The position numbers and the translations under genes were made by a program. This document shows, in pieces, positions 2,936 to 24,298 of a stretch of 42,870 bases of DNA (its first letter is position 1; the number at the start of each line of letters is the position of its first letter). This DNA is from Candidatus Alectryocaccobium stercorigallinarum. Its GTDB lineage: Bacteria; Bacillota; Clostridia; Lachnospirales; Lachnospiraceae. The stretch lies in contig DVOP01000025.1 in the NCBI GenBank assembly GCA_018713465.1, positions 1 to 42,870 on the forward strand, written 5' to 3'. The notes below the pieces were generated by a model. That model was not told the DNA's origin. It worked only from the letters and a program-made list of their open reading frames with translations, and ran no database searches.

Positions 2936-7561
<4,626 letters not shown>

Positions 7562-15098: not shown

Positions 15099-15118
15099 TA
15101 TGATACAAGGGTTACAAA

Positions 15119-15154
15119 GTAATGCATATTTCTGCTTGCATGAATATGCATTAC
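15119..15154 (+). promoter_or_regulatory. 11-bp perfect hairpin in the GOGAT-glnA intergenic region
   Basis: GTAATGCATAT (15119-15129) pairs with ATATGCATTAC (15144-15154). No U-tract follows. It competes with GCTTGCA(15134-15140)/TGCAAGC(15157-15163) and with CTGCTT(15132-15137)/AAGCAG(15179-15184). Confidence 0.45.
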
Positions 15155-15224
15155 CTTGCAAGCCGAACAAGCATGAGGAAGCAGCTATTTTTCAAAGAAA
15201 AATGAGCGATTCCGAATGATTGTA

Positions 15225-15256
15225 GTATTGCGGGAGCACGAAGTGCAGAGCAATAC
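15225..15256 (+). promoter_or_regulatory. composite hairpin 45 nt upstream of the glnA start
   Basis: GTATTGC(15225-15231)/GCAATAC(15250-15256) encloses GCAC-GAA-GTGC. No U-tract follows. Confidence 0.4.
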
Positions 15257-15301
15257 GTAGTATCATCATAAAAATCGATTATTAAGAAAGGCAGAAATAT
15301 A

Positions 15302-17150: not shown

Positions 17151-17188
17151 TAAAAACAAGGAGCCCCCGCGCGGGGCTCCCTCTTTTT
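17151..17188. terminator. bidirectional rho-independent terminator between the convergent ANTAR and carB genes
   Basis: GGGAGCCCC (17159-17167) pairs with GGGGCTCCC (17173-17181). TCTTTTT follows on the plus strand and TTGTTTTT on the minus strand. Confidence 0.85.
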
Positions 17189-17196
17189 CGGCTTTT

Positions 17197-18051
17197 TCAA
17201 TACTCAAATTCTCCGGTAAATACCGTTACCGCCTCGCCGGACAGTACTATCCTGTCGTCGCTGTAATTTACCGTCAGATCGCCGCCGAGCAGCTTTACGG
17301 TTATATCCGTGTTTTTCTCACAATACCCGTTCGCTACCGCTGCCGCTGCCGCCGCGCACGCGCCGGTACCGCATGCAAGAGTCTCTCCGTTGCCTCTCTC
17401 CCACACCCGCATTCTTAACGTCGTCGAATTCACAATGCGTACAAATTCCGTATTTATGCGCTCAGGGAATATTTCGGCATGTTCGAATTTCGGCCCAATG
17501 TCTTCTGTCTTTATATTATTTACCGAATCCAAAAAAACTACGCAGTGCGGGTTTCCTACAGAAACGCATGTGACCTTATATTCTTTTTTATCTATCTTAA
17601 GCGGATAACCGATCATCTTTTTGGCGTCGCATACCGCCGGAAGCTCTTTTACGTCAAAGCTCGCCCTGCCCATGTCTGCAGCTACCGTATTTACCTTTCC
17701 GTCCCTCACATATGCGCGGATCTTGTGCACGCCGCTCGCCGTTTCTATGTTCATAAATTCACTGCGTATATATCCGTTGTCATAGAGGTATTTTGCAACG
17801 CAGCGGATACTGTTGCCGGCCATTTTCCCCTCTGAACCGTCTTTATTGAATATGCGCATTTTAGCGTCGGCTTTCGCGGATTTTTCAATAAGCACTATCC
17901 CGTCGGCCCCTATGCCGTAATGCTGCTGGCAAAGCGTTACGCACAATGATTCCGGACACGATATCTCGTTGTCGAAATTTTCGATATAAATATAATCATT
18001 TCCGCACGAATGCATCTTCGTGAATTTTATTTTCGTACGCCACATTCGCAT
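17197..18051 (-). other. DapF-like domain of the CarB fusion protein
   Basis: Motifs FTKMHSCGNDYIYI, IFNKDGSEGKMAGNSIRC, GNPHCVVF and ERGNGETLACGTGACA, about 284 aa in total. No stop codon and no SD-like sequence separates it from the CarB part. Confidence 0.8.
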
Positions 18052-21000
18052 GTCGTTAAGGTCTACAAGCTCCGTATTATCGAGGCTGTAATGGCTTATG
18101 AGCATATTTGCGAGCGCCTCGGCTGTATCAAGGCTCGTAAGACACGGTATTCCAAGCTGCATTGCCTTTATATGCAGTTTTTTAAATTTTTTTATCGTTT
18201 CCGCCGTCACTGCTCCCGCGTAAATAATATAGTTTATCTTTCCCTCGCTCATAAGATCGAATATCTCATCGCTCTTATCGCTTCCGGCGACGGTAACGAC
18301 GTCTATATCCATCGCCTTTACAGCCGCCGCTGTTTCTTTTGTCGCATACATGACCATTCCGATATCCGAGAATTTTTTAGCTATCGAGAAAAATTCCTGA
18401 CAGTCGTTTTCCGAAACAGACAGAAATACGCCAATTTTTTGACGGCCGGTTGAAACGGGGACCGCAAGCCCTGCCGCCGTAAGCCCCTTGAACAGAGCTT
18501 CCTCGGTGGATTTCCCGATCCCGAGCACTTCTCCCGTGGACTTCATTTCAGGTCCTAAAAGCGCGTTGACGTCGTATAGCTTTTCAAACGAAAATACCGG
18601 CACCTTTACCGCATAATACGGCGGAGTCCTGTAAAGTCCCGTGCCGTAGCCAAGATCAGTCAGCCTGGCTCCGAGCATGACTTTCGAAGCAAGGTCGACC
18701 ATAGGCACGTTCGTTACCTTGCTTATGTACGGAACTGTCCTTGAAGCGCGCGGATTTACCTCGATAACATACAGCTCGTCCTTATATATGAGATACTGTA
18801 TATTTACAAGCCCCTTTGTCTTAAGCGCAAGCGCTAATTTTTCAGAGACATCGCATATCTTTCTTAAAAATTTGTCGCTGAGATTATAAGGCGGATAAAC
18901 CGCGATGGAATCCCCCGAATGTATGCCCGCTCTTTCGATATGCTCCATGATACCGGGTATGAGCACGTCTTCGCCGTCCGATATAACGTCCACCTCCAGC
19001 TCGGTCCCCGGCATGTATTTATCTACAAGCACCGGGTTATCTATACCCTGCGCAAGTATCGCGGACATGTATTTTTTTGTGTCCTCTTCGGTATTGGCTA
19101 TAGTCATGTTCTGGCCGCCTATAACATAGCTCGGACGCAAAAGCACCGGATAACCCAGCGTCTTCGCCGCCTCGAGCGCTTCCTCCAGCGAAGCTACCCC
19201 GGCCCCTTTTGGCCTTCTTATCCCGAACTGCTCAAGAAGGGCGTCGAACCTCGCCCTGTCCTCAGCTATATCGATACTTTCCGCCGAAGTACCGAGTATC
19301 CGTATTCCCTGCTTATCCAAGAATTCCGTCAGCTTTATCGCCGTCTGTCCGCCGAACGCCACGACGACGCATATCGGCTTTTCGACCTTGATTATGTTCA
19401 TCACATCTTCCGGGCAGAGCGGTTCAAAATAAAGCCTGTCCGCCGTGTCATAATCCGTAGACACTGTTTCCGGGTTGTTGTTTACTATAACTACGTCATA
19501 TCCCATATCCCGCAGTGTCCATACGCAGTGTACCGAAGAATAGTCGAATTCTATACCCTGCCCTATCCTTATAGGTCCGGAGCCAAGCACCATTACGACC
19601 GGCTTTCCTGAACGCTTAAAGCTTCTCGCTTCGCATATCTTATCTGCCGACGAATAAAAATACGGGGTTTCCGCGTCAAATTCCGCACCGCACGTATCAA
19701 CCATCTTGTAAACAAAGTCAAACCCGGGAAGCTGTTTTACTCCTGTAAGGGCGCTTATCGCGCTGTCGGTATAGCCGAGCTTCTTCGCACGATTATAATC
19801 CTCGTCCGATATGCTGCCATATCCGTCATTAAGCTTCAGTTCAAAGCCGGCAAGGCCTTTTAATTTATATAAGAACCATTCGTCTATCTTCGTTACGGAG
19901 TGTATCTCGTCGACTGATACGCCTTCTTTTAAGGCCTCAAATACGGTAAAAAGCCTCCTGTCGTTCTGGTCGTGAAGCCTTTCCGTCACAGGGCGATCAT
20001 CTAACGGCTCGGCGTTAAGTGTCTCAAGTCCTGTTTCCGCTCCCCTGACCGCTTTTAAAAGAGCCATTTCAAAACTTCCGGCTATAGCCATTACCTCGCC
20101 CGTGGCTTTCATCTGCGTGCCAAGCTTCCGGCTGCTGCCCGCGAATTTATCGAACGGCCACTTCGGCAGCTTCACTACGACATAATCAAGCGTAGGCTCA
20201 AAGCATGCGCATGTCTTTCCGGTTATATCGTTTTTTATCTCGTCGAGATAATATCCCAGCGCTATCTTCGTTGTTATCTTCGCTATAGGATATCCCGTAG
20301 CCTTGCTTGCGAGCGCTGACGAGCGTGACACCCTCGGGTTGACTTCAATGACCGCATATTCAAAGCTTTCAGGATCCAGCGCGAACTGGCAGTTGCAGCC
20401 GCCGACTATATTAAGCGCCGTTATCATTTCGAGCGAAGCGCTCCTTAACATCTGGTATTCCTTATCCGCGAGGGTAAGCGCAGGCGCGACTACGATACTG
20501 TCGCCGGTATGCACTCCTACCGGATCAAAATTTTCCATCGAACAGACGGCTATTACGTTTCCGGCCGCGTCGCGCATAGTCTCAAATTCTATCTCTTTCC
20601 AGCCCGCTATACTCTTTTCCACAAGTATCTGGGTTATGGGCGACATATCAAGACCCGTCCTTGCTATTACTGCAAGCTCGTCCTCATTTTCCGCAATTCC
20701 TCCGCCGCTGCCTCCAAGCGTAAACGCAGGGCGCACTATTACAGGATATCCTATATCCCTTGCCGCCTTTAACGCCTCCTCCAGCGTATTCGCGATTTCT
20801 GACGGAACTACGGGCTGGCCTATGCTCTTCATAGTTTCCCTGAAAAGCTCCCTGTCCTCGGCCCGGTCTATCGCTTCTATATCTGAGCCTAAAAGCCTCA
20901 CGTTATATTTTTCTAGGACCCCGGCCTTGCCAAGCTGCATGGCTATCGTCAGTCCTGTCTGTCCCCCGAGTCCGGCAAGTATCCCGTCAGGCCTTTCTTT

Positions 21001-21237
21001 TGCGATTATCCGTTCGACGGTTTCGGCGTTCAGCGGCTCGAGATATATCTCATCGGCCATAGCCTTATCGGTCATTATAGTAGCGGGATTTGAATTTACA
21101 AGCACGACGTTTATGCCCTCGTCTTTTAACACCCGGCACGCCTGCGCCCCGGCATAGTCAAACTCGGCGGCCTGTCCGATAACTATCGGTCCCGAACCTA
21201 TGACAAGGACCTTTCGTATACTTTTATCCTTTGGCAT
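17197..21237 (-). CDS. carB: carbamoyl-phosphate synthase large subunit fused in frame to a C-terminal DapF-like (diaminopimelate epimerase fold) domain
   Basis: Single 1346-codon ORF. Residues 1 to about 1062 are full-length CarB (VLVIGSGPIVIGQAAEFDYAG..., a second ATP-grasp VMVLGSGPIRIGQGIEFDY..., and the MGS-like tail). Residues from about 1063 to 1346 carry the DapF motifs. The start overlaps the carA stop (TAATG). Confidence 0.9.
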   Translation of the reverse strand: MPKDKSIRKVLVIGSGPIVIGQAAEFDYAGAQACRVLKDEGINVVLVNSNPATIMTDKAMADEIYLEPLNAETVERIIAKERPDGILAGLGGQTGLTIAMQLGKAGVLEKYNVRLLGSDIEAIDRAEDRELFRETMKSIGQPVVPSEIANTLEEALKAARDIGYPVIVRPAFTLGGSGGGIAENEDELAVIARTGLDMSPITQILVEKSIAGWKEIEFETMRDAAGNVIAVCSMENFDPVGVHTGDSIVVAPALTLADKEYQMLRSASLEMITALNIVGGCNCQFALDPESFEYAVIEVNPRVSRSSALASKATGYPIAKITTKIALGYYLDEIKNDITGKTCACFEPTLDYVVVKLPKWPFDKFAGSSRKLGTQMKATGEVMAIAGSFEMALLKAVRGAETGLETLNAEPLDDRPVTERLHDQNDRRLFTVFEALKEGVSVDEIHSVTKIDEWFLYKLKGLAGFELKLNDGYGSISDEDYNRAKKLGYTDSAISALTGVKQLPGFDFVYKMVDTCGAEFDAETPYFYSSADKICEARSFKRSGKPVVMVLGSGPIRIGQGIEFDYSSVHCVWTLRDMGYDVVIVNNNPETVSTDYDTADRLYFEPLCPEDVMNIIKVEKPICVVVAFGGQTAIKLTEFLDKQGIRILGTSAESIDIAEDRARFDALLEQFGIRRPKGAGVASLEEALEAAKTLGYPVLLRPSYVIGGQNMTIANTEEDTKKYMSAILAQGIDNPVLVDKYMPGTELEVDVISDGEDVLIPGIMEHIERAGIHSGDSIAVYPPYNLSDKFLRKICDVSEKLALALKTKGLVNIQYLIYKDELYVIEVNPRASRTVPYISKVTNVPMVDLASKVMLGARLTDLGYGTGLYRTPPYYAVKVPVFSFEKLYDVNALLGPEMKSTGEVLGIGKSTEEALFKGLTAAGLAVPVSTGRQKIGVFLSVSENDCQEFFSIAKKFSDIGMVMYATKETAAAVKAMDIDVVTVAGSDKSDEIFDLMSEGKINYIIYAGAVTAETIKKFKKLHIKAMQLGIPCLTSLDTAEALANMLISHYSLDNTELVDLNDMRMWRTKIKFTKMHSCGNDYIYIENFDNEISCPESLCVTLCQQHYGIGADGIVLIEKSAKADAKMRIFNKDGSEGKMAGNSIRCVAKYLYDNGYIRSEFMNIETASGVHKIRAYVRDGKVNTVAADMGRASFDVKELPAVCDAKKMIGYPLKIDKKEYKVTCVSVGNPHCVVFLDSVNNIKTEDIGPKFEHAEIFPERINTEFVRIVNSTTLRMRVWERGNGETLACGTGACAAAAAAVANGYCEKNTDITVKLLGGDLTVNYSDDRIVLSGEAVTVFTGEFEY

Positions 21238-22316
21238 TATTTATTCCTCCTCATCAGATCAATAAATTTTCCGAACAGAAAACCTGTGTCTTTCGGTCCG
21301 CCGCAGGCCTCCGGGTGGAACTGCACTGTAAAGCACATTTTTTCCGGATATTCCATTCCCTCGCAGCTCATATCGTTCGCATTATAAAAAATCTCTCTTC
21401 CCACACCTCTTAAGCTTTCGGAAACTACCGCGTAGCCGTGGTTCTGGCTTGTTATATACGTTCTGCAGCCGTATACCTCTTTTACAGGCTGGTTCGCGCC
21501 TCTGTGTCCGTATTTGAGCTTTATCGTCTCTCCGCCCATCGCCAAGGCTGTAAGCTGATGTCCTAAGCATATGCCGAACACCGGTACTTTTCCCAAAAGT
21601 TTTTTTATCTGTTCTATGCTGTATGAGTTGTCCTTCGGGTCTCCCGGGCCATTTGAAAGCATTATCCCGTCCGGGCAGCCGGCCAATATATTTTCCGCCG
21701 GAGTATCGTATGGCACGACTTTGACATCACAGTTTAAATTTTGCAGAGAGGTTATTATATTTTTCTTCGCGCCGTAATCTATAAGCGTAACATCGTACAT
21801 TTTATGTCCTTTCGCAGGAAAGACTGATATGCCGCTCCTGCTGACCTGCGCCACCACATCGGACGCCTTATATCCTGATAAGCGGCTTTTTATACTGCGA
21901 AGCTCCTCATCGGAGATCCCTGAGCATATCGCCGCGTTCATTACCCCTTCTTCTCTTATTATCTTTGTAACGGCCCTCGTATCTATGCCGCATATCCCCG
22001 GGATATCGTTATCTTTTAAAAATCTGCCTGCCGTATCCTCACATCTGAAATTCGACGGCGTTTCGCAGAGCTCGCGCACGATATATCCTTTAAGCGCGCA
22101 CTTCCCTTCAAAATCTTCCTTCGTTATCCCGTAATTTCCAATAAGAGGAAAGGTCTGCATAACTATCTGACCCGCATAGCTCGGATCGGTAAGCGTTTCG
22201 GTATATCCGGCCATGCCGGTCGTAAAAACAAGCTCGCCTACAGTATCCCTGTCTGAACCTATGCGCTCCCCTTCAAATATTTCTCCGTTTTCCAATATTA
22301 AATATGCCTTAGACAC
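21237..22316 (-). CDS. carA: carbamoyl-phosphate synthase small subunit (glutamine amidotransferase)
   Basis: 359 aa counted from the GTG at 22316 (GGAGG 5 nt upstream). N-terminal SKAYLILENGEIFEG, plus triad GATase motifs GICLGHQ and the HP of FHPE. The ATG at 22346 in the ORF track has no RBS. Confidence 0.92.
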   Translation of the reverse strand: MSKAYLILENGEIFEGERIGSDRDTVGELVFTTGMAGYTETLTDPSYAGQIVMQTFPLIGNYGITKEDFEGKCALKGYIVRELCETPSNFRCEDTAGRFLKDNDIPGICGIDTRAVTKIIREEGVMNAAICSGISDEELRSIKSRLSGYKASDVVAQVSRSGISVFPAKGHKMYDVTLIDYGAKKNIITSLQNLNCDVKVVPYDTPAENILAGCPDGIMLSNGPGDPKDNSYSIEQIKKLLGKVPVFGICLGHQLTALAMGGETIKLKYGHRGANQPVKEVYGCRTYITSQNHGYAVVSESLRGVGREIFYNANDMSCEGMEYPEKMCFTVQFHPEACGGPKDTGFLFGKFIDLMRRNK

Positions 22317-22342
22317 GACGACCTCCAAATTACAGCATTGCA

Positions 22343-22380
22343 GCATTAAAAACCGCAGCGAAAACAGCGGTTTTTAATGC
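22343..22380 (-). terminator. 14-bp perfect hairpin between amt::PII and carA (probable, possibly leaky, terminator)
   Basis: On the minus strand: GCATTAAAAACCGC-TGTTTTCGCT-GCGGTTTTTAATGC. The T5 run lies inside the 3' arm, so a shorter CCGC/GCGG+T5 form would behave as a terminator. Confidence 0.5.
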
Positions 22381-22409: not shown

Positions 22410-22778
22410 TCAGTTATCTTCAGGATTCAGGTCCTGAAGCGCCTGATATCCGTGTTCTCCTGTACGGATCTTTACAACGTCCTCGACGTCATAAACAAAT
22501 ATCTTTCCGTCTCCGTATTTTCCGGTATACAGACATTCGCGAACCGCTTCTATAAGCGTATCTACCGGTATCATGCTTACTACGACCTCAAGCTTGATCT
22601 TCGGAAGAAGACGTGAATCAACAGGATTTCCCCTGAAGTATACGGAATGTCCCTTCTGATATCCGTATCCGAGCACGTTTGTAACCGTGATTCCCGTAAT
22701 GCCAAGATCGTCAAGCACAGTCTGCAGCTGAGGAAATTTATTCTGATTGATAATAATGCTTACCTTAGTTATCTTCGC
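22410..22778 (-). other. PII signal-transduction domain of the Amt fusion protein
   Basis: KITKVSIIINQNKFPQLQTVLDDLGITGITVTNVLGYGYQKGHSVYFRGNPVDSRLLPKIKLEVVV...GKYGDGKIFVYDVEDVVKIRTGE. This has the PII beta-alpha-beta pattern, a short T-loop and the C-terminal GDGKIFV motif. Confidence 0.8.
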
Positions 22779-24188
22779 TCCCGCCGTTTCGTGATGTTCT
22801 ACAGGAACGGCTTTATCCACGCTTACCGCCTCTGTCATGTCAGAGTCAGCAGTATATGAAGCGGCTGCTTTTCCATATTCTTTTTCCAGTTCAGCGACGA
22901 TATCGCTTCTGTGTTCATAAGACTCTGCAACTCTTACAAAATCAGGATAAGCGATGTTTCCATGCTCTCCGATATCAAGACCCTGTATCTCTTCCTCGCT
23001 CGAAACACGTATTCCCATCGTCGCCTTGATAAGGAGCCATACGACGGCCGACGCCGCGAATGTAAAGCCGCCTATCGCGGCAATGCCTATGAGCTGTACT
23101 CCGAGAAGTCCGAAACCGCCGCCAAAAAACAGGCCGTTAGTTGTTGAAAGCGATGTGACTCCCTCCTGCGCGAAAAGCCCTACGCAGATAGTTCCGAAAA
23201 CGCCGCAGCAAAGATGTACGGACGTAGCTCCGACCGGATCGTCTATTCTGCAGCGGTCAAAGAATCCGACCGCAAATACTACAAGTATTCCGGAAACTGC
23301 GCCTATCAGGATAGAAATCTCAATGGAAACGTACGCACAGCTGCCGGTAATTCCTACAAGCCCGGCAAGACAGCCGTTTATTGTCATGCCAAGATCCGGC
23401 TTTTTGAGCACTATCCACGAGGTTATAGTCGAAGTAAGCACCGCGACTATTGCCGAGGTATTTGTTGTCAAAAGGATATGCATAACGTCCGTCGGATTCT
23501 GGAAGCTCATTGTAGAGCCCGGGTTGAATCCGAACCAGCCGAGCCAGAGAACGAAAAGTCCAATGACCGCAAGCGACATGCTGTGTCCCGGTATAGCTCT
23601 CGGCTTCCTGTCTTTTCCGTATTTTCCAATTCTCGGCCCAAGCAGCATAGCTCCGGCAAGAGCTGCCCAGCCGCCTACCGAGTGAACGACCGAATCGCCC
23701 GCGAAATCCATAAACCCAAGATCGGCGAGCCAGCCGCCGCCCCATACCCAATGGCCTACTATCGGGTAAATAACAAGCGTAAGCACGAATGAGAACACTA
23801 TGAACGAAACATATTTAACGCGCTCCGCTACGGCTCCGGAAACGATCGTCGCCGCCGTGCCGCAGAACACAAGCTGGAAGAAGAACTTGCCCCAGAACGG
23901 AACGCTTGACGTCAGCGTGCCGTCATAAAACGAAAGATCCTGTCCTCCTAAGATGAACAAATGCTCTGTTCCGATTATCGGGTTATCGCCTCCGAACATT
24001 ATGCCCCAGCCTAAGAGCATAAATCCGAGCGATGAGACCGCAAACACGATAAAGTTCTTTGAAAGAATATTTACCGTATTCTTTGATCTCGCAAAGCCCG
24101 CTTCGACGCTGGCAAAACCGAGGTTCATAAAGAACACCAAAATAGCCGCCAGAAAGACCCATAAAGTGTCGATCAAAGAAAATTCCAT
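22410..24188 (-). CDS. amt: ammonium transporter (Amt family) fused to a C-terminal PII (GlnB/GlnK-like) domain
   Basis: 592 aa counted from the ATG at 24188 (AAAGAGGGG upstream). Amt motifs are present (FASVEAGFARSKN; twin His in DSVVHSVGGW and SVHLCCGVFG). A linker of about 60 aa follows, then a PII fold. Confidence 0.9.
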   Translation of the reverse strand: MEFSLIDTLWVFLAAILVFFMNLGFASVEAGFARSKNTVNILSKNFIVFAVSSLGFMLLGWGIMFGGDNPIIGTEHLFILGGQDLSFYDGTLTSSVPFWGKFFFQLVFCGTAATIVSGAVAERVKYVSFIVFSFVLTLVIYPIVGHWVWGGGWLADLGFMDFAGDSVVHSVGGWAALAGAMLLGPRIGKYGKDRKPRAIPGHSMSLAVIGLFVLWLGWFGFNPGSTMSFQNPTDVMHILLTTNTSAIVAVLTSTITSWIVLKKPDLGMTINGCLAGLVGITGSCAYVSIEISILIGAVSGILVVFAVGFFDRCRIDDPVGATSVHLCCGVFGTICVGLFAQEGVTSLSTTNGLFFGGGFGLLGVQLIGIAAIGGFTFAASAVVWLLIKATMGIRVSSEEEIQGLDIGEHGNIAYPDFVRVAESYEHRSDIVAELEKEYGKAAASYTADSDMTEAVSVDKAVPVEHHETAGAKITKVSIIINQNKFPQLQTVLDDLGITGITVTNVLGYGYQKGHSVYFRGNPVDSRLLPKIKLEVVVSMIPVDTLIEAVRECLYTGKYGDGKIFVYDVEDVVKIRTGEHGYQALQDLNPEDN

Positions 24189-24219
24189 AATAACTACCCC
24201 TCTTTCCAAAAAAATGTAC

Positions 24220-24257
24220 AAAAAAAGCAAAGGCGCTTCTTTCGAAACGTCTTTGCT
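24220..24257 (-). terminator. intrinsic terminator inside the amt::PII 5' leader
   Basis: On the minus strand: AGCAAAGACGTTTC-GAAA-GAAGCGCCTTTGCT, 13 pairs plus one A/C mismatch with a GNRA tetraloop, followed by T7. Confidence 0.8.
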
Positions 24258-24269: not shown

Positions 24270-24298
24270 ATTTTAGAACATGTTTATAAATATGTCAA
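24270..24298 (-). promoter_or_regulatory. sigma-A type promoter for amt::PII, TTGACA-17 nt-TAAAAT
   Basis: Minus-strand TTGACA at 24298-24293, a 17-nt spacer, TAAAAT at 24275-24270. Confidence 0.65.

Follow-up and report, generated by a model that had tools for sequence, protein, structure and literature searches.

Carbamoyl-phosphate synthetase (CPSase) is a textbook example of allostery and of how multi-domain enzymes evolve. Eukaryotic CAD has the order GATase-CPSase-DHOase-ATCase, yeast Ura2 includes an inactive DHOase-like domain, and CPS1 an inactive glutaminase-like domain. In all of them, further enzyme folds are joined in frame to the CPSase; those that are catalytically dead, in Ura2 and CPS1, have been kept for structure or regulation. 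DapF (EC 5.1.1.7), which epimerizes diaminopimelate (DAP), is an antibiotic-target enzyme with a well-understood two-thiol mechanism. Its catalytic pair consists of Cys73 and Cys217, and E. coli DapF additionally activates RppH by binding, that is, by a non-catalytic action (PMC6061791).

In the window (the whole 42,870-nucleotide stretch of DNA analysed), the ORF listing gave a single minus-strand ORF with an ATG start that combines CarB with a DapF fold (Table 1). Its product matched the CarB equivalogs PRK05294 (1439.8 bits, cutoff 599, profile positions 1-1046 of 1058) and TIGR01369 (1420.9 bits, cutoff 1027). A Pfam-type search returned the CarB domain order, with CPSase_L_D1 and CPSase_L_D2 twice each, CPSase_L_D3 at 419-498 and MGS at 950-1034, and the mean column conservation of the CarB part was 0.87. 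Like bacterial CarB (E. coli, PDB 1BXR/1JDB), the protein has both ATP-grasp units, the oligomerisation domain, the MGS-like domain and an adjacent upstream carA. The CarB part is a complete CPSase large subunit, and presumably an active one, to judge from the HMM scores and the conservation. Unlike E. coli CarB, it does not stop at the usual end after the allosteric domain (about 1060-1075 aa), and 280 more residues run into the DapF fold. These matched the DapF equivalog TIGR00652 over residues 1070-1344 (cutoff 114.65, profile positions 1-268 of 270) and contained two stretches of DAP_epimerase (PF01678). The fold is full-length, with 45-50% identity to solved DapFs (1BWZ/2GKE from H. influenzae, 2OTN from B. 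anthracis), and differs from DapF in being joined to CarB instead of standing alone at ~280 aa. The DapF fold announced as complete in the preliminary description is indeed so, but its active site is not, because the Cys73 position is Ala1140.

Two other assignments were rejected. The profile for a bifunctional DapF/glutamate racemase (NF038284) gave 119.1 bits, below its cutoff of 350. As for a multi-enzyme CPSase of the CAD/Ura2 type, there was no in-frame DHOase or ATCase, DAP_epimerase was the sole extra domain, and the likeness is architectural only. Furthermore, the partners in CAD, Ura2 and CPS1 belong to the same pathway, whereas the window's fusion is bacterial and draws its partner domain from the lysine/peptidoglycan pathway.

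Table 1. Features of the carB::dapF locus (positions in the window)
Feature	Position	Strand	Remarks
Promoter-like site TTGACA-17-TAAAAT	24270..24298	-	11 of 12 matches; upstream of amt::P-II
amt::P-II fusion gene	22410..24230	-	first gene of operon
carA (small subunit)	21237..22346	-	TAA stop overlaps carB ATG (TAATG); GAGGAGG SD upstream
carB::dapF-like fusion ORF	17197..21237	-	1346 aa + TGA stop at 17197-17199; codon check
CarB part, residues 1 to ~1065	18043..21237	-	two preATP-grasp/ATP-grasp units, oligomerisation domain, MGS-like allosteric domain
E. coli K954 equivalent = Cys946	18400-18402	-	just outside MGS core
MGS-like allosteric domain core, residues 950-1034	18136..18390	-	PF02142, 32.8 bits
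E. coli K993 equivalent = Gly985	18283-18285	-	
Junction, residues 1047-1069 (...SHYSLDNTELVDLNDMRMWRTK)	18031..18099	-	gap-free, same length in all fused lineages; no stop codon, no SD
DapF-fold domain, residues 1070-1346	17200..18030	-	TIGR00652, 274.9 bits; 235 bits to PDB 2otn
Clade-specific Cys motif C1094-PESL-C1099-VTL-C1103	17929..17958	-	invariant in 121/121 close homologs
Ala1140 (GCC) at catalytic Cys73 position of DapF	17818..17820	-	alignment, codon check
Cys1289, equivalent of catalytic Cys217, retained	17371..17373	-	
Bidirectional intrinsic-terminator-like hairpin	17158..17182	.	directly after fusion's stop codon; shared with convergent ANTAR regulator gene

The fused gene is the last of its operon, with no conserved downstream partner, and no DAP-pathway neighbours were found at the window's locus. 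With its stop overlapping the carB start, carA is translationally coupled to carB::dapF. In the alignment, residue 1038 of the fusion pairs with residue 1046 of E. coli CarB, which has 27 more residues after that point; therefore, the natural CarB end lies at about residue 1065 and the linker has at most ~4 residues. This shifts slightly the end at about residue 1062, with no linker, that had been proposed initially, the last Met of the CarB tail being 1063. The junction Met codons are M1063 (18049-18051) and M1065 (18043-18045), and no Shine-Dalgarno sequence was found at these positions in 67 fused loci: the median anti-SD duplex energies were -3.3 and -0.2 kcal/mol, whereas true carB starts gave -9.3 and randomly chosen sites inside carB gave -3.0. 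The absence of internal ribosome-binding signals noted before thus extends to the whole set, and the gap-free, protein-level conserved junction and the unbroken frame likewise uphold the view that the DapF part is made as a C-terminal extension of CPSase. The product is most simply one polypeptide of about 150 kDa. The AlphaFold model of the fusion (pLDDT 70, pTM 0.52) had pLDDT < 50 at residues 1055-1066 and no usable interdomain interface, so it gives structural coupling no support.

At least 120 protein clusters, and some 70 species in GTDB, have the same unbroken fusion with identical junction length, which answers the earlier call to inspect orthologues; among the 80 GTDB species representatives that match best, about 70 have it. 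The carriers include many gut Clostridia, some Treponema and Gracilibacteraceae; many of the carrier species are abundant gut/rumen Oscillospirales, and the 66 GTDB fused loci divide into 56 from Clostridia, 8 from Treponema/Spirochaetaceae and 2 from Gracilibacteraceae. The frame is unbroken in all junction-spanning loci not cut by a contig end, except for one frameshifted relative (L050). Two cultured isolates and one HiFi complete chromosome are among the carriers, and their open frames, together with the ORF and the HMM matches, bear out the original observation that carB reads without a stop into the DapF fold. A literature search found no paper describing a CarB::DapF fusion. The architecture is undescribed in this sense but not rare, since many GenBank, RefSeq and UniRef entries contain it, always named just "carbamoyl-phosphate synthase large subunit". 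By the yardstick of the preliminary description it thus counts as widespread in databases, though under no name of its own. Annotation and metabolic reconstruction (GapMind, SEED-type lysine pathway calls) may miss the fused DapF because of this name, or may wrongly credit Cys-less genomes with DapF activity. For the CPSase and DapF families alike, a conserved and widespread bacterial CPSase with a DapF fold would represent a new architecture.

In unfused relatives the gene order is dapF-pyrG-dapL; in the fused ones it is carA-carB::dapF, and some of these loci continue with dapL or pyrG. The identical junction length in Clostridia, Treponema and Gracilibacteraceae argues for a single origin. 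We suggest that the fusion formed once, in a Clostridia ancestor with dapF directly downstream of carA-carB and adjoining dapL and pyrG, and was then passed on vertically and, to Treponema, horizontally. Basal lineages such as Ruminococcus sp. FC2018 have kept both catalytic cysteines, and their domain is probably a true DapF.

Cys73 is present in all five solved DapFs aligned, including H. influenzae 1BWZ. In the set made up of the window protein plus 120 close homologs, this position is Ala in 118 and Gly in 3, and the 66 GTDB fused loci have A30 C18 G13 S4 F1; standalone DapFs keep Cys in 110/110 cases, against only 18/67 fused ones (104/104 standalone representatives and 6/6 standalone loci; Fisher p=2e-27). 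The Ala codon GCC is two substitutions away from a Cys codon. The trees, which are neighbour-joining and without bootstrap support, show at least 14 state changes at this position, and hence repeated, independent losses of Cys73. The rest of the pocket has been retained. N64, G74, N75, N157, H159, N190, E208, R209, C217, G218 and T219 show about 100% conservation in each of the fused groups. Among the window protein and its 120 close homologs, the DAP-binding residues N11, N64, N75, N157, N190, E208, R209 and G218 occur in 121/121 and G74 and T219 in 120/121 each. The dimerisation aromatic (E. coli Tyr268 equivalent) is Tyr or Phe in all groups, so the fused domain has, like DapF, all DAP-binding residues, Cys217 and this aromatic. 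Purifying selection acts on the DapF part, whose dN/dS was 0.07-0.29 for pairs lacking the Cys and 0.10-0.14 for pairs that have it. The clade-specific cysteine motif (Table 1) is absent from fusions keeping Cys73. Where Cys73 has gone, the DAP-pathway neighbours tend to have gone too: dapL or pyrG follows the fused gene in 6/15 Cys loci vs. 1/41 non-Cys loci (p=9e-4). Such repeated loss of a single Cys only in the fused context, under purifying selection, is a natural experiment on the way from enzyme to pseudoenzyme or regulatory domain.

The allosteric domain has changed as well. Of the E. coli-type UMP/IMP site (K954, T974, T977, K993, N1015, T1017), T974 and T977 are kept. Unlike E. coli CarB, the window's clade has no equivalents of K954 and K993, which we take from the CPSase structural literature to be the UMP/IMP phosphate-binding lysines, and the 1013-1018 loop reads IYAGAV in the window protein vs. 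ISTSxKGR, Y/A/G replacing loop residues. These changes were found only in the window's clade, and Cys73-retaining relatives keep both lysines. The UMP/IMP site defines the mode of regulation, not membership of the CarB family, and a CPSase without K954 and K993 might just be an unregulated one of the arginine type.

Based on the above results, we consider it rather probable that the protein as a whole is an active CPSase with a DapF-derived pseudo-epimerase domain kept as a non-epimerase module. With the Cys73 general base replaced by Ala in the window's lineage, canonical two-thiol epimerisation would be impossible for the domain; the invariant DAP pocket, the retained Cys217, His159 and Glu208 and the purifying selection suggest that it survives on the CPSase allosteric domain, probably as a binding or regulatory module. 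A catalytic link of carbamoyl-phosphate synthesis to the lysine/peptidoglycan pathway is therefore unlikely in the window protein, but plausible in Cys-retaining relatives with dapL downstream. The most likely role of the module would be that of a sensor of a DAP-type ligand, modulating or organising CPSase through dimerisation or through a clamp that moves from open to closed. More specifically, and as a tentative proposal, LL-DAP, meso-DAP or a related cell-wall/lysine precursor may bind and shut the clamp, the signal crossing the linker-less junction to an allosteric domain that has no UMP/IMP site. If so, carbamoyl-phosphate (pyrimidine/arginine) supply would be tied to cell-wall precursor status by a previously unknown allosteric input. 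E. coli DapF acting on RppH is similar in that a DapF fold regulates another enzyme via protein-protein contact, apart from epimerase activity; unlike the fusion, it binds its partner, an RNA pyrophosphohydrolase, non-covalently and is still an active epimerase (PMC6061791).

The strict retention of Cys217, His159 and Glu208 could also mean that chemistry, and not just binding, is still selected. One such possibility, which we regard as unlikely, is a bifunctional enzyme in which water or some other group stands in for the Cys73 thiol and LL-DAP is still epimerized, the fusion only ensuring co-expression of two nitrogen-rich biosynthetic steps. The DapF equivalog score, the invariant binding residues together with Cys217, His159 and Glu208, the dimerisation aromatic, the selection on the domain and the dapL adjoining Cys-retaining relatives are consistent with it. 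However, different lineages have Ala, Gly, Ser or Phe in place of Cys73, with no shared chemistry, no alternative thiol was consistently present in the aligned fused groups, and every standalone DapF has kept the Cys. A C73A/C217A mutant of DapF has no detectable activity (PMC6061791). Moreover, the Cys-less loci have lost their DAP-pathway neighbours, and Treponema retains a Cys-less domain even though Spirochaetaceae peptidoglycan uses L-ornithine (PMC3814087).

It is also improbable, and ranks next, that the domain is a purely structural relic serving CPSase folding, solubility or oligomerisation (e.g., by DapF-type dimerisation) without any ligand, as the inactive DHOase-like domain of yeast Ura2. 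The zero linker and fixed junction length, the dimerisation aromatic and the selection across the entire domain agree with this, but a scaffold alone does not explain the near-100% invariance of eleven polar pocket residues at otherwise ~50% identity. Doubtful, and placed after the relic, is a neofunctionalised enzyme that, with Cys217 as its single base, catalyses another reaction on a DAP-like substrate, for instance an elimination/dehydration or a one-way exchange of protons, by analogy with proline-racemase-family dehydratases in which one Cys is replaced. The strictly kept Cys217, His159 and Glu208 and the new invariant cysteines of the window's clade would fit, but residues as varied as those at position 73 do not point to a tuned new active site, and there is no supporting pathway context because the fused gene ends the operon. 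To our knowledge, no DapF-derived activity of this type is known. Finally, that the fusion is an artefact (a missed stop, a frameshift, a chimeric assembly or DapF made from an internal start), which its unusual architecture and the frameshift in the DapF part of L050 might suggest, is extremely improbable and effectively refuted already by the identical ORF in independent ENA and Logan assemblies, by more than 120 clusters of 74-99% identity that are all fused, by ~60 GTDB loci (isolates and the HiFi chromosome among them) with a single open frame of 1314-1463 codons, and by the conserved, SD-free junction.

Other DapF fusions were also found, namely an aminotransferase-DapF (P0198, 687 aa) and a GNAT-DapF (P0234), in both of which, as in CarB::DapF, DapF is joined to a second enzyme in one ORF. 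Unlike in CarB::DapF, DapF in P0198 is C-terminal to a small enzyme, the partner being Aminotran_1_2 (Pfam), and this aminotransferase may belong, like DapL, to the DAP pathway.

The carB frame of the window is a single ORF starting with ATG and ending with TGA, in which Pfam domains follow in the order CPSase_L_D1 (twice), D2 (twice), D3, MGS and two DAP_epimerase stretches. The NCBIfam CarB equivalog was matched over profile positions 1–1046 of 1058 (1440 bits), and the DapF equivalog was matched by residues 1070–1344 over positions 1–268 of 270 (275 bits, cutoff 115). Thus, the carB frame runs into a complete-length DapF fold, as the preliminary description had claimed, and its coordinates for the internal Met codons and the stop were right by codon check. 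The product is one polypeptide with an intact CarB. Based on the alignment, residue 1038 corresponds to residue 1046 of E. coli CarB, which has 27 more residues, so the natural CarB C-terminus would lie near residue 1065. In related genomes, standalone DapFs begin with MK followed by IPFTKMHG, two residues ahead of aligned position 1070. Consequently, the two parts are joined directly, but the "no linker" reported earlier has to be read as a linker of about four residues or fewer. The junction-spanning sequence (...LVDLNDMRMWRTKIKFTK...) aligned without gaps across 121 close sequences, and the junction length and the motif TELVD(I/V)N..R.....F.KM were identical in all fused lineages.

Features of the window and of two GTDB loci
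Feature	Sequence	Positions	Strand	Description
carB::dapF	window	17197-21237	-	1346 codons
Stop of carB::dapF	window	17197
Internal Met codons	window	18051, 18045
Cys1078 codon	window	18004-18006	-
C1094-x4-C1099-x3-C1103	window	17929-17958	-	N-terminal subdomain of DapF-like part
amt::P-II	window	22410-24230	-	606-aa ORF; Ammonium_transp 23-428, P-II (GlnB/K-like) 488-592
Glutamine/ammonia-handling genes	window	2936-24230		about 21 kb
Clostridiales-1 RNA (RF01699)	window	15101-15265	+	Rfam 106.5 bits, gathering score 48
L050, frameshifted fusion	JAFWPR010000099.1	about 6200-7046		142-codon frame left at 3' end
L073, glnA to dapL	CAJFOJ010000010.1	2933-10413		Ruminococcaceae MAG

ENA and Logan contigs from independent assemblies encode an identical protein. 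When 5.8 billion protein clusters were searched, the 120 best clusters (sources NCBI, ENA, JGI and Logan) all carried PF01678, with 74–99% identity and 99–100% query coverage. Their length was 1339–1357 aa, except for four clusters (P0060, P0062, P0081 and P0115) of 1500–1512 aa with an extra PF00988 (CarA N-terminal domain) stretch ahead of CarB, which could reflect fusion to a carA fragment or wrongly called start codons. In addition, GTDB species representatives were scanned with a junction-spanning alignment, giving at least 600 matching stretches; about 73 of the best 80 loci, which were analysed, match straight across the junction. Every junction-crossing locus not ended by a contig edge contained one open frame of 1314–1463 codons, except L050, the sole frameshifted locus among those examined, where the frameshift lies within the DapF part, which is either pseudogenised or affected by a sequencing error. 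Among the carriers are two cultured isolates (Ruminococcus sp. FC2018 and Ruminococcaceae bacterium AM07-15) and a complete HiFi chromosome (OZ006985.1), together with MAGs assigned to Treponema/Spirochaetaceae (seven or eight) and to Gracilibacteraceae (two). MAG taxonomy follows the depositors' labels, of which the 'Treponema' label of locus L049 and one 'Selenomonadaceae' label look doubtful. Related genomes, where a check had been proposed, thus carry the fusion unbroken (at least 120 clusters and about 70 GTDB species). An assembly artefact or a missed stop is excluded by the independent contigs, the many fused clusters, the unbroken GTDB loci, the isolates and the HiFi chromosome.

The anti-Shine–Dalgarno pairing ahead of the junction Met codons had medians of -3.3 and -0.2 kcal/mol in 67 loci, compared with -3.0 kcal/mol at random internal positions and -9.3 kcal/mol at true carB starts. 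Since the junction pairing is at the random-site level and far below that of true starts, a separately initiated DapF is unlikely. No Shine–Dalgarno sequence was found at the junction in the 67 loci, in agreement with the reading of the window alone, and an internal start was rejected on this ground. The conserved Met1075 was dismissed as a start candidate because it is part of the KMHG motif present in all DapFs.

Catalysis by DapF relies on the thiols of Cys73 and Cys217, and replacing both with Ala (C73A/C217A) abolishes activity (PMC6061791). The window has M-A1140-G-N-S in place of the (S/M/Q)-C73-G-N-G of H. influenzae 1BWZ and four other solved DapFs, position 73 being assigned by alignment to 1BWZ native numbering, E. 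coli numbering and the same four structures. The Cys of GNSIRC was rejected as the catalytic residue: it is Cys79, and the Cys73 position is Ala in the E. coli and H. influenzae alignments. The Ala1140 codon, GCC, is two substitutions from any Cys codon. The DapF-like part, earlier called entire, is therefore a full-length fold but lacks the catalytic Cys73, which the preliminary description missed. Residue 73 was Ala in 118 and Gly in 3 of the sequences comprising the window and 120 close homologs. Fused Clostridia from GTDB had Ala (23), Cys (18), Gly (12), Ser (2) and Phe (1), fused Treponema/Spirochaetaceae had Ala (7) and Gly (1), and both fused Gracilibacteraceae had Ser. Examples of fusions lacking Cys73 are those of an Oscillibacter genome (WP_295866876.1), JAJBUU01 and a Treponema genome (WP_318690614.1); Ruminococcus sp. 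FC2018 (WP_081777235.1) and OZ006985.1 retain it. Cys was present in 6/6 unfused loci and 104/104 standalone 50%-identity representatives (P0127 was left out, since its sequence opens with the CarB tail MDINALRTHR, marking it as a fusion fragment), and retention differed strongly between fused and standalone proteins (Fisher p = 2e-27).

Residues N64, G74, N75, N157, H159, N190, E208, R209, C217, G218 and T219 were essentially invariant in every fused group, and the Tyr268-equivalent dimerisation position stays aromatic. Judging from these residues, the DapF fold keeps an intact binding pocket without the Cys73 base. No replacement thiol near position 73 was consistent across the lineages without Cys73 (Cys-less). 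DapF2 was rejected as the substitute epimerase, being reported only from Staphylococcus, Gemella and Peptostreptococcus (Ashniev et al.). The cysteines C1094, C1099 and C1103 are conserved in 121/121 close homologs, and fusions retaining Cys73 lack them; together with C1078, they could form a four-Cys metal or redox site.

The dN/dS of the DapF part (Nei–Gojobori) was 0.07–0.29 for Cys-less pairs and 0.10–0.14 for Cys-retaining pairs, only slightly above the values of the corresponding CarB parts. The Cys-less domain is under purifying selection, not in decay. In the full-length neighbour-joining tree (all trees were of this type, without support values), the window falls in a clade of approximately 30 species that is entirely Cys-less, and the remaining half mostly has Cys, which has been replaced independently by Ser, Gly, Phe or Ala at scattered points; parsimony gave at least 14 state changes at residue 73. 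Spirochaetaceae peptidoglycan contains L-ornithine instead of DAP (PMC3814087), and despite this a conserved Cys-less domain is retained in Treponema. Retention of Cys73 correlates with dapL or pyrG as the next gene (6/15 Cys73-retaining vs 1/41 Cys-less loci, p = 9e-4), and no conserved downstream partner was found in the Cys-less loci among the GTDB fusions.

The effector site was compared using the E. coli CarB alignment and residue roles from the CPSase structural literature, in which K954, T974, T977, K993, N1015 and T1017 of E. coli CarB bind the UMP/IMP phosphate and ribose. The Cys-retaining half of the tree has K954, K993 and a loop ISTSxKGRxPxxDS similar to the E. coli INTTSGRRAIEDS. 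Treponema fusions have K993 and the loop, with Arg, Gln or Lys at position 954. In the window's clade, both Lys positions are variable (the window has Cys946 and Gly985) and the loop reads IYTGAVKD, so the nucleotide effector site appears to be remodelled. This change and the three new invariant cysteines occur in the same clade.

Based on the above results, we lean towards the window protein being an active CPSase in which the DapF-derived domain has lost DAP epimerisation and is kept for a role other than catalysis. This domain would most likely bind a DAP-type ligand and modulate or organise the CPSase. DapF closes clamp-like on its substrate and dimerises, and the E. coli enzyme activates another enzyme by contact (PMC6061791). 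Residual or alternative epimerase chemistry, with C217 kept and Cys73 lost, is improbable, although it is the strongest of the alternatives. Slightly less probable is a purely structural relic in a domain under purifying selection; the dead DHOase-like domain of yeast Ura2 would be comparable. A new catalytic activity using a single base, such as the invariant C217, is a marginally weaker candidate still. An artefact or separate translation has almost no probability, given the independent identical contigs, the unbroken loci and the lack of a junction Shine–Dalgarno sequence in 67 loci. The AlphaFold model of residues 553–1346 had a pLDDT of 70 and a pTM of 0.52, with 80–90 in the DapF part and below 50 at residues 1055–1066; because of these mediocre overall scores and the low-confidence junction, it was not used to infer the CarB/DapF interface. 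A PDB search with the allosteric domain and junction alone gave no match.

The fusion gene is the last in the operon amt::P-II–carA–carB::dapF. The carA TAA overlaps the carB ATG, amt is preceded by a strong promoter-like site, and directly after the fusion stop codon comes a bidirectional terminator. The first gene of the operon, amt::P-II, is itself a second fusion. The surrounding region consists almost entirely of glutamine/ammonia-handling genes, namely those for a GATase_6/7 protein, pyrG, asnB, GSIII, a split glutamate synthase (GATase_2, Glu_synthase, Fer4, Pyr_redox_2 and GXGXG), glnA, an ANTAR regulator, carAB and amt::P-II. Rfam detected neither a riboswitch nor a leader around the operon, the sole match being the Clostridiales-1 RNA upstream of glnA. 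It lies between the genes for the GXGXG glutamate-synthase subunit and glnA, adjoins the ANTAR response-regulator gene and could serve as a leader that regulates the nitrogen cluster.

Where GTDB loci extended far enough upstream, they nearly all had carA–carB::dapF, with dapL or pyrG next in some. The closest unfused relatives have dapF–pyrG–dapL or dapF–dapL. Most simply, the fusion would have arisen when the carB stop codon was lost in an ancestor that had dapF directly downstream. Locus L073 (glnA–ANTAR–carA–dapF–pyrG–dapL) lacks carB and has a standalone dapF, with Cys73, directly after carA; here the carB part may have been lost secondarily, or the ancestral arrangement may have been different. 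The Gracilibacteraceae position in the DapF-only tree suggested several independent fusions, which were rejected because the identical junction length and motif across lineages argue for a single fusion event. Fusions of seven Treponema/Spirochaetaceae MAGs (L056, L060, L062, L064, L069, L071 and L076) are lengthened by insertions to 1395–1451 codons stop-to-stop, and that of WP_318690614.1 (Treponema) has 1389 aa. They form one branch among Clostridia sequences in both trees, its position differing, which suggests that the gene was acquired horizontally, already fused.

Many copies are present in GenBank PGAP, RefSeq and UniRef (e.g., WP_081777235.1, WP_318690614.1, WP_295866876.1, RHO51991.1 and MCD7860292.1), all named 'carbamoyl-phosphate synthase large subunit', with C-terminal fragments named 'diaminopimelate epimerase, partial'. 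No description of the fusion was found in open-access PMC and bioRxiv full text, and two amino-acid-pathway surveys discussing DapF variants do not mention it (GapMind 2026 preprint; Ashniev et al.). The earlier statement that no such CPSase is described thus holds for this literature, but databases contain many copies, named only as CPSase. As far as searched, the architecture is widespread and deposited, yet apparently undescribed, and the loss of Cys73 is likewise apparently unnoted. Other DapF fusions in the representative library were an aminotransferase–DapF (P0198, 687 aa) and a GNAT acetyltransferase–DapF (P0234, 427 aa); P0184 (687 aa) has a 400-aa N-terminal region without a Pfam match, followed by DapF.
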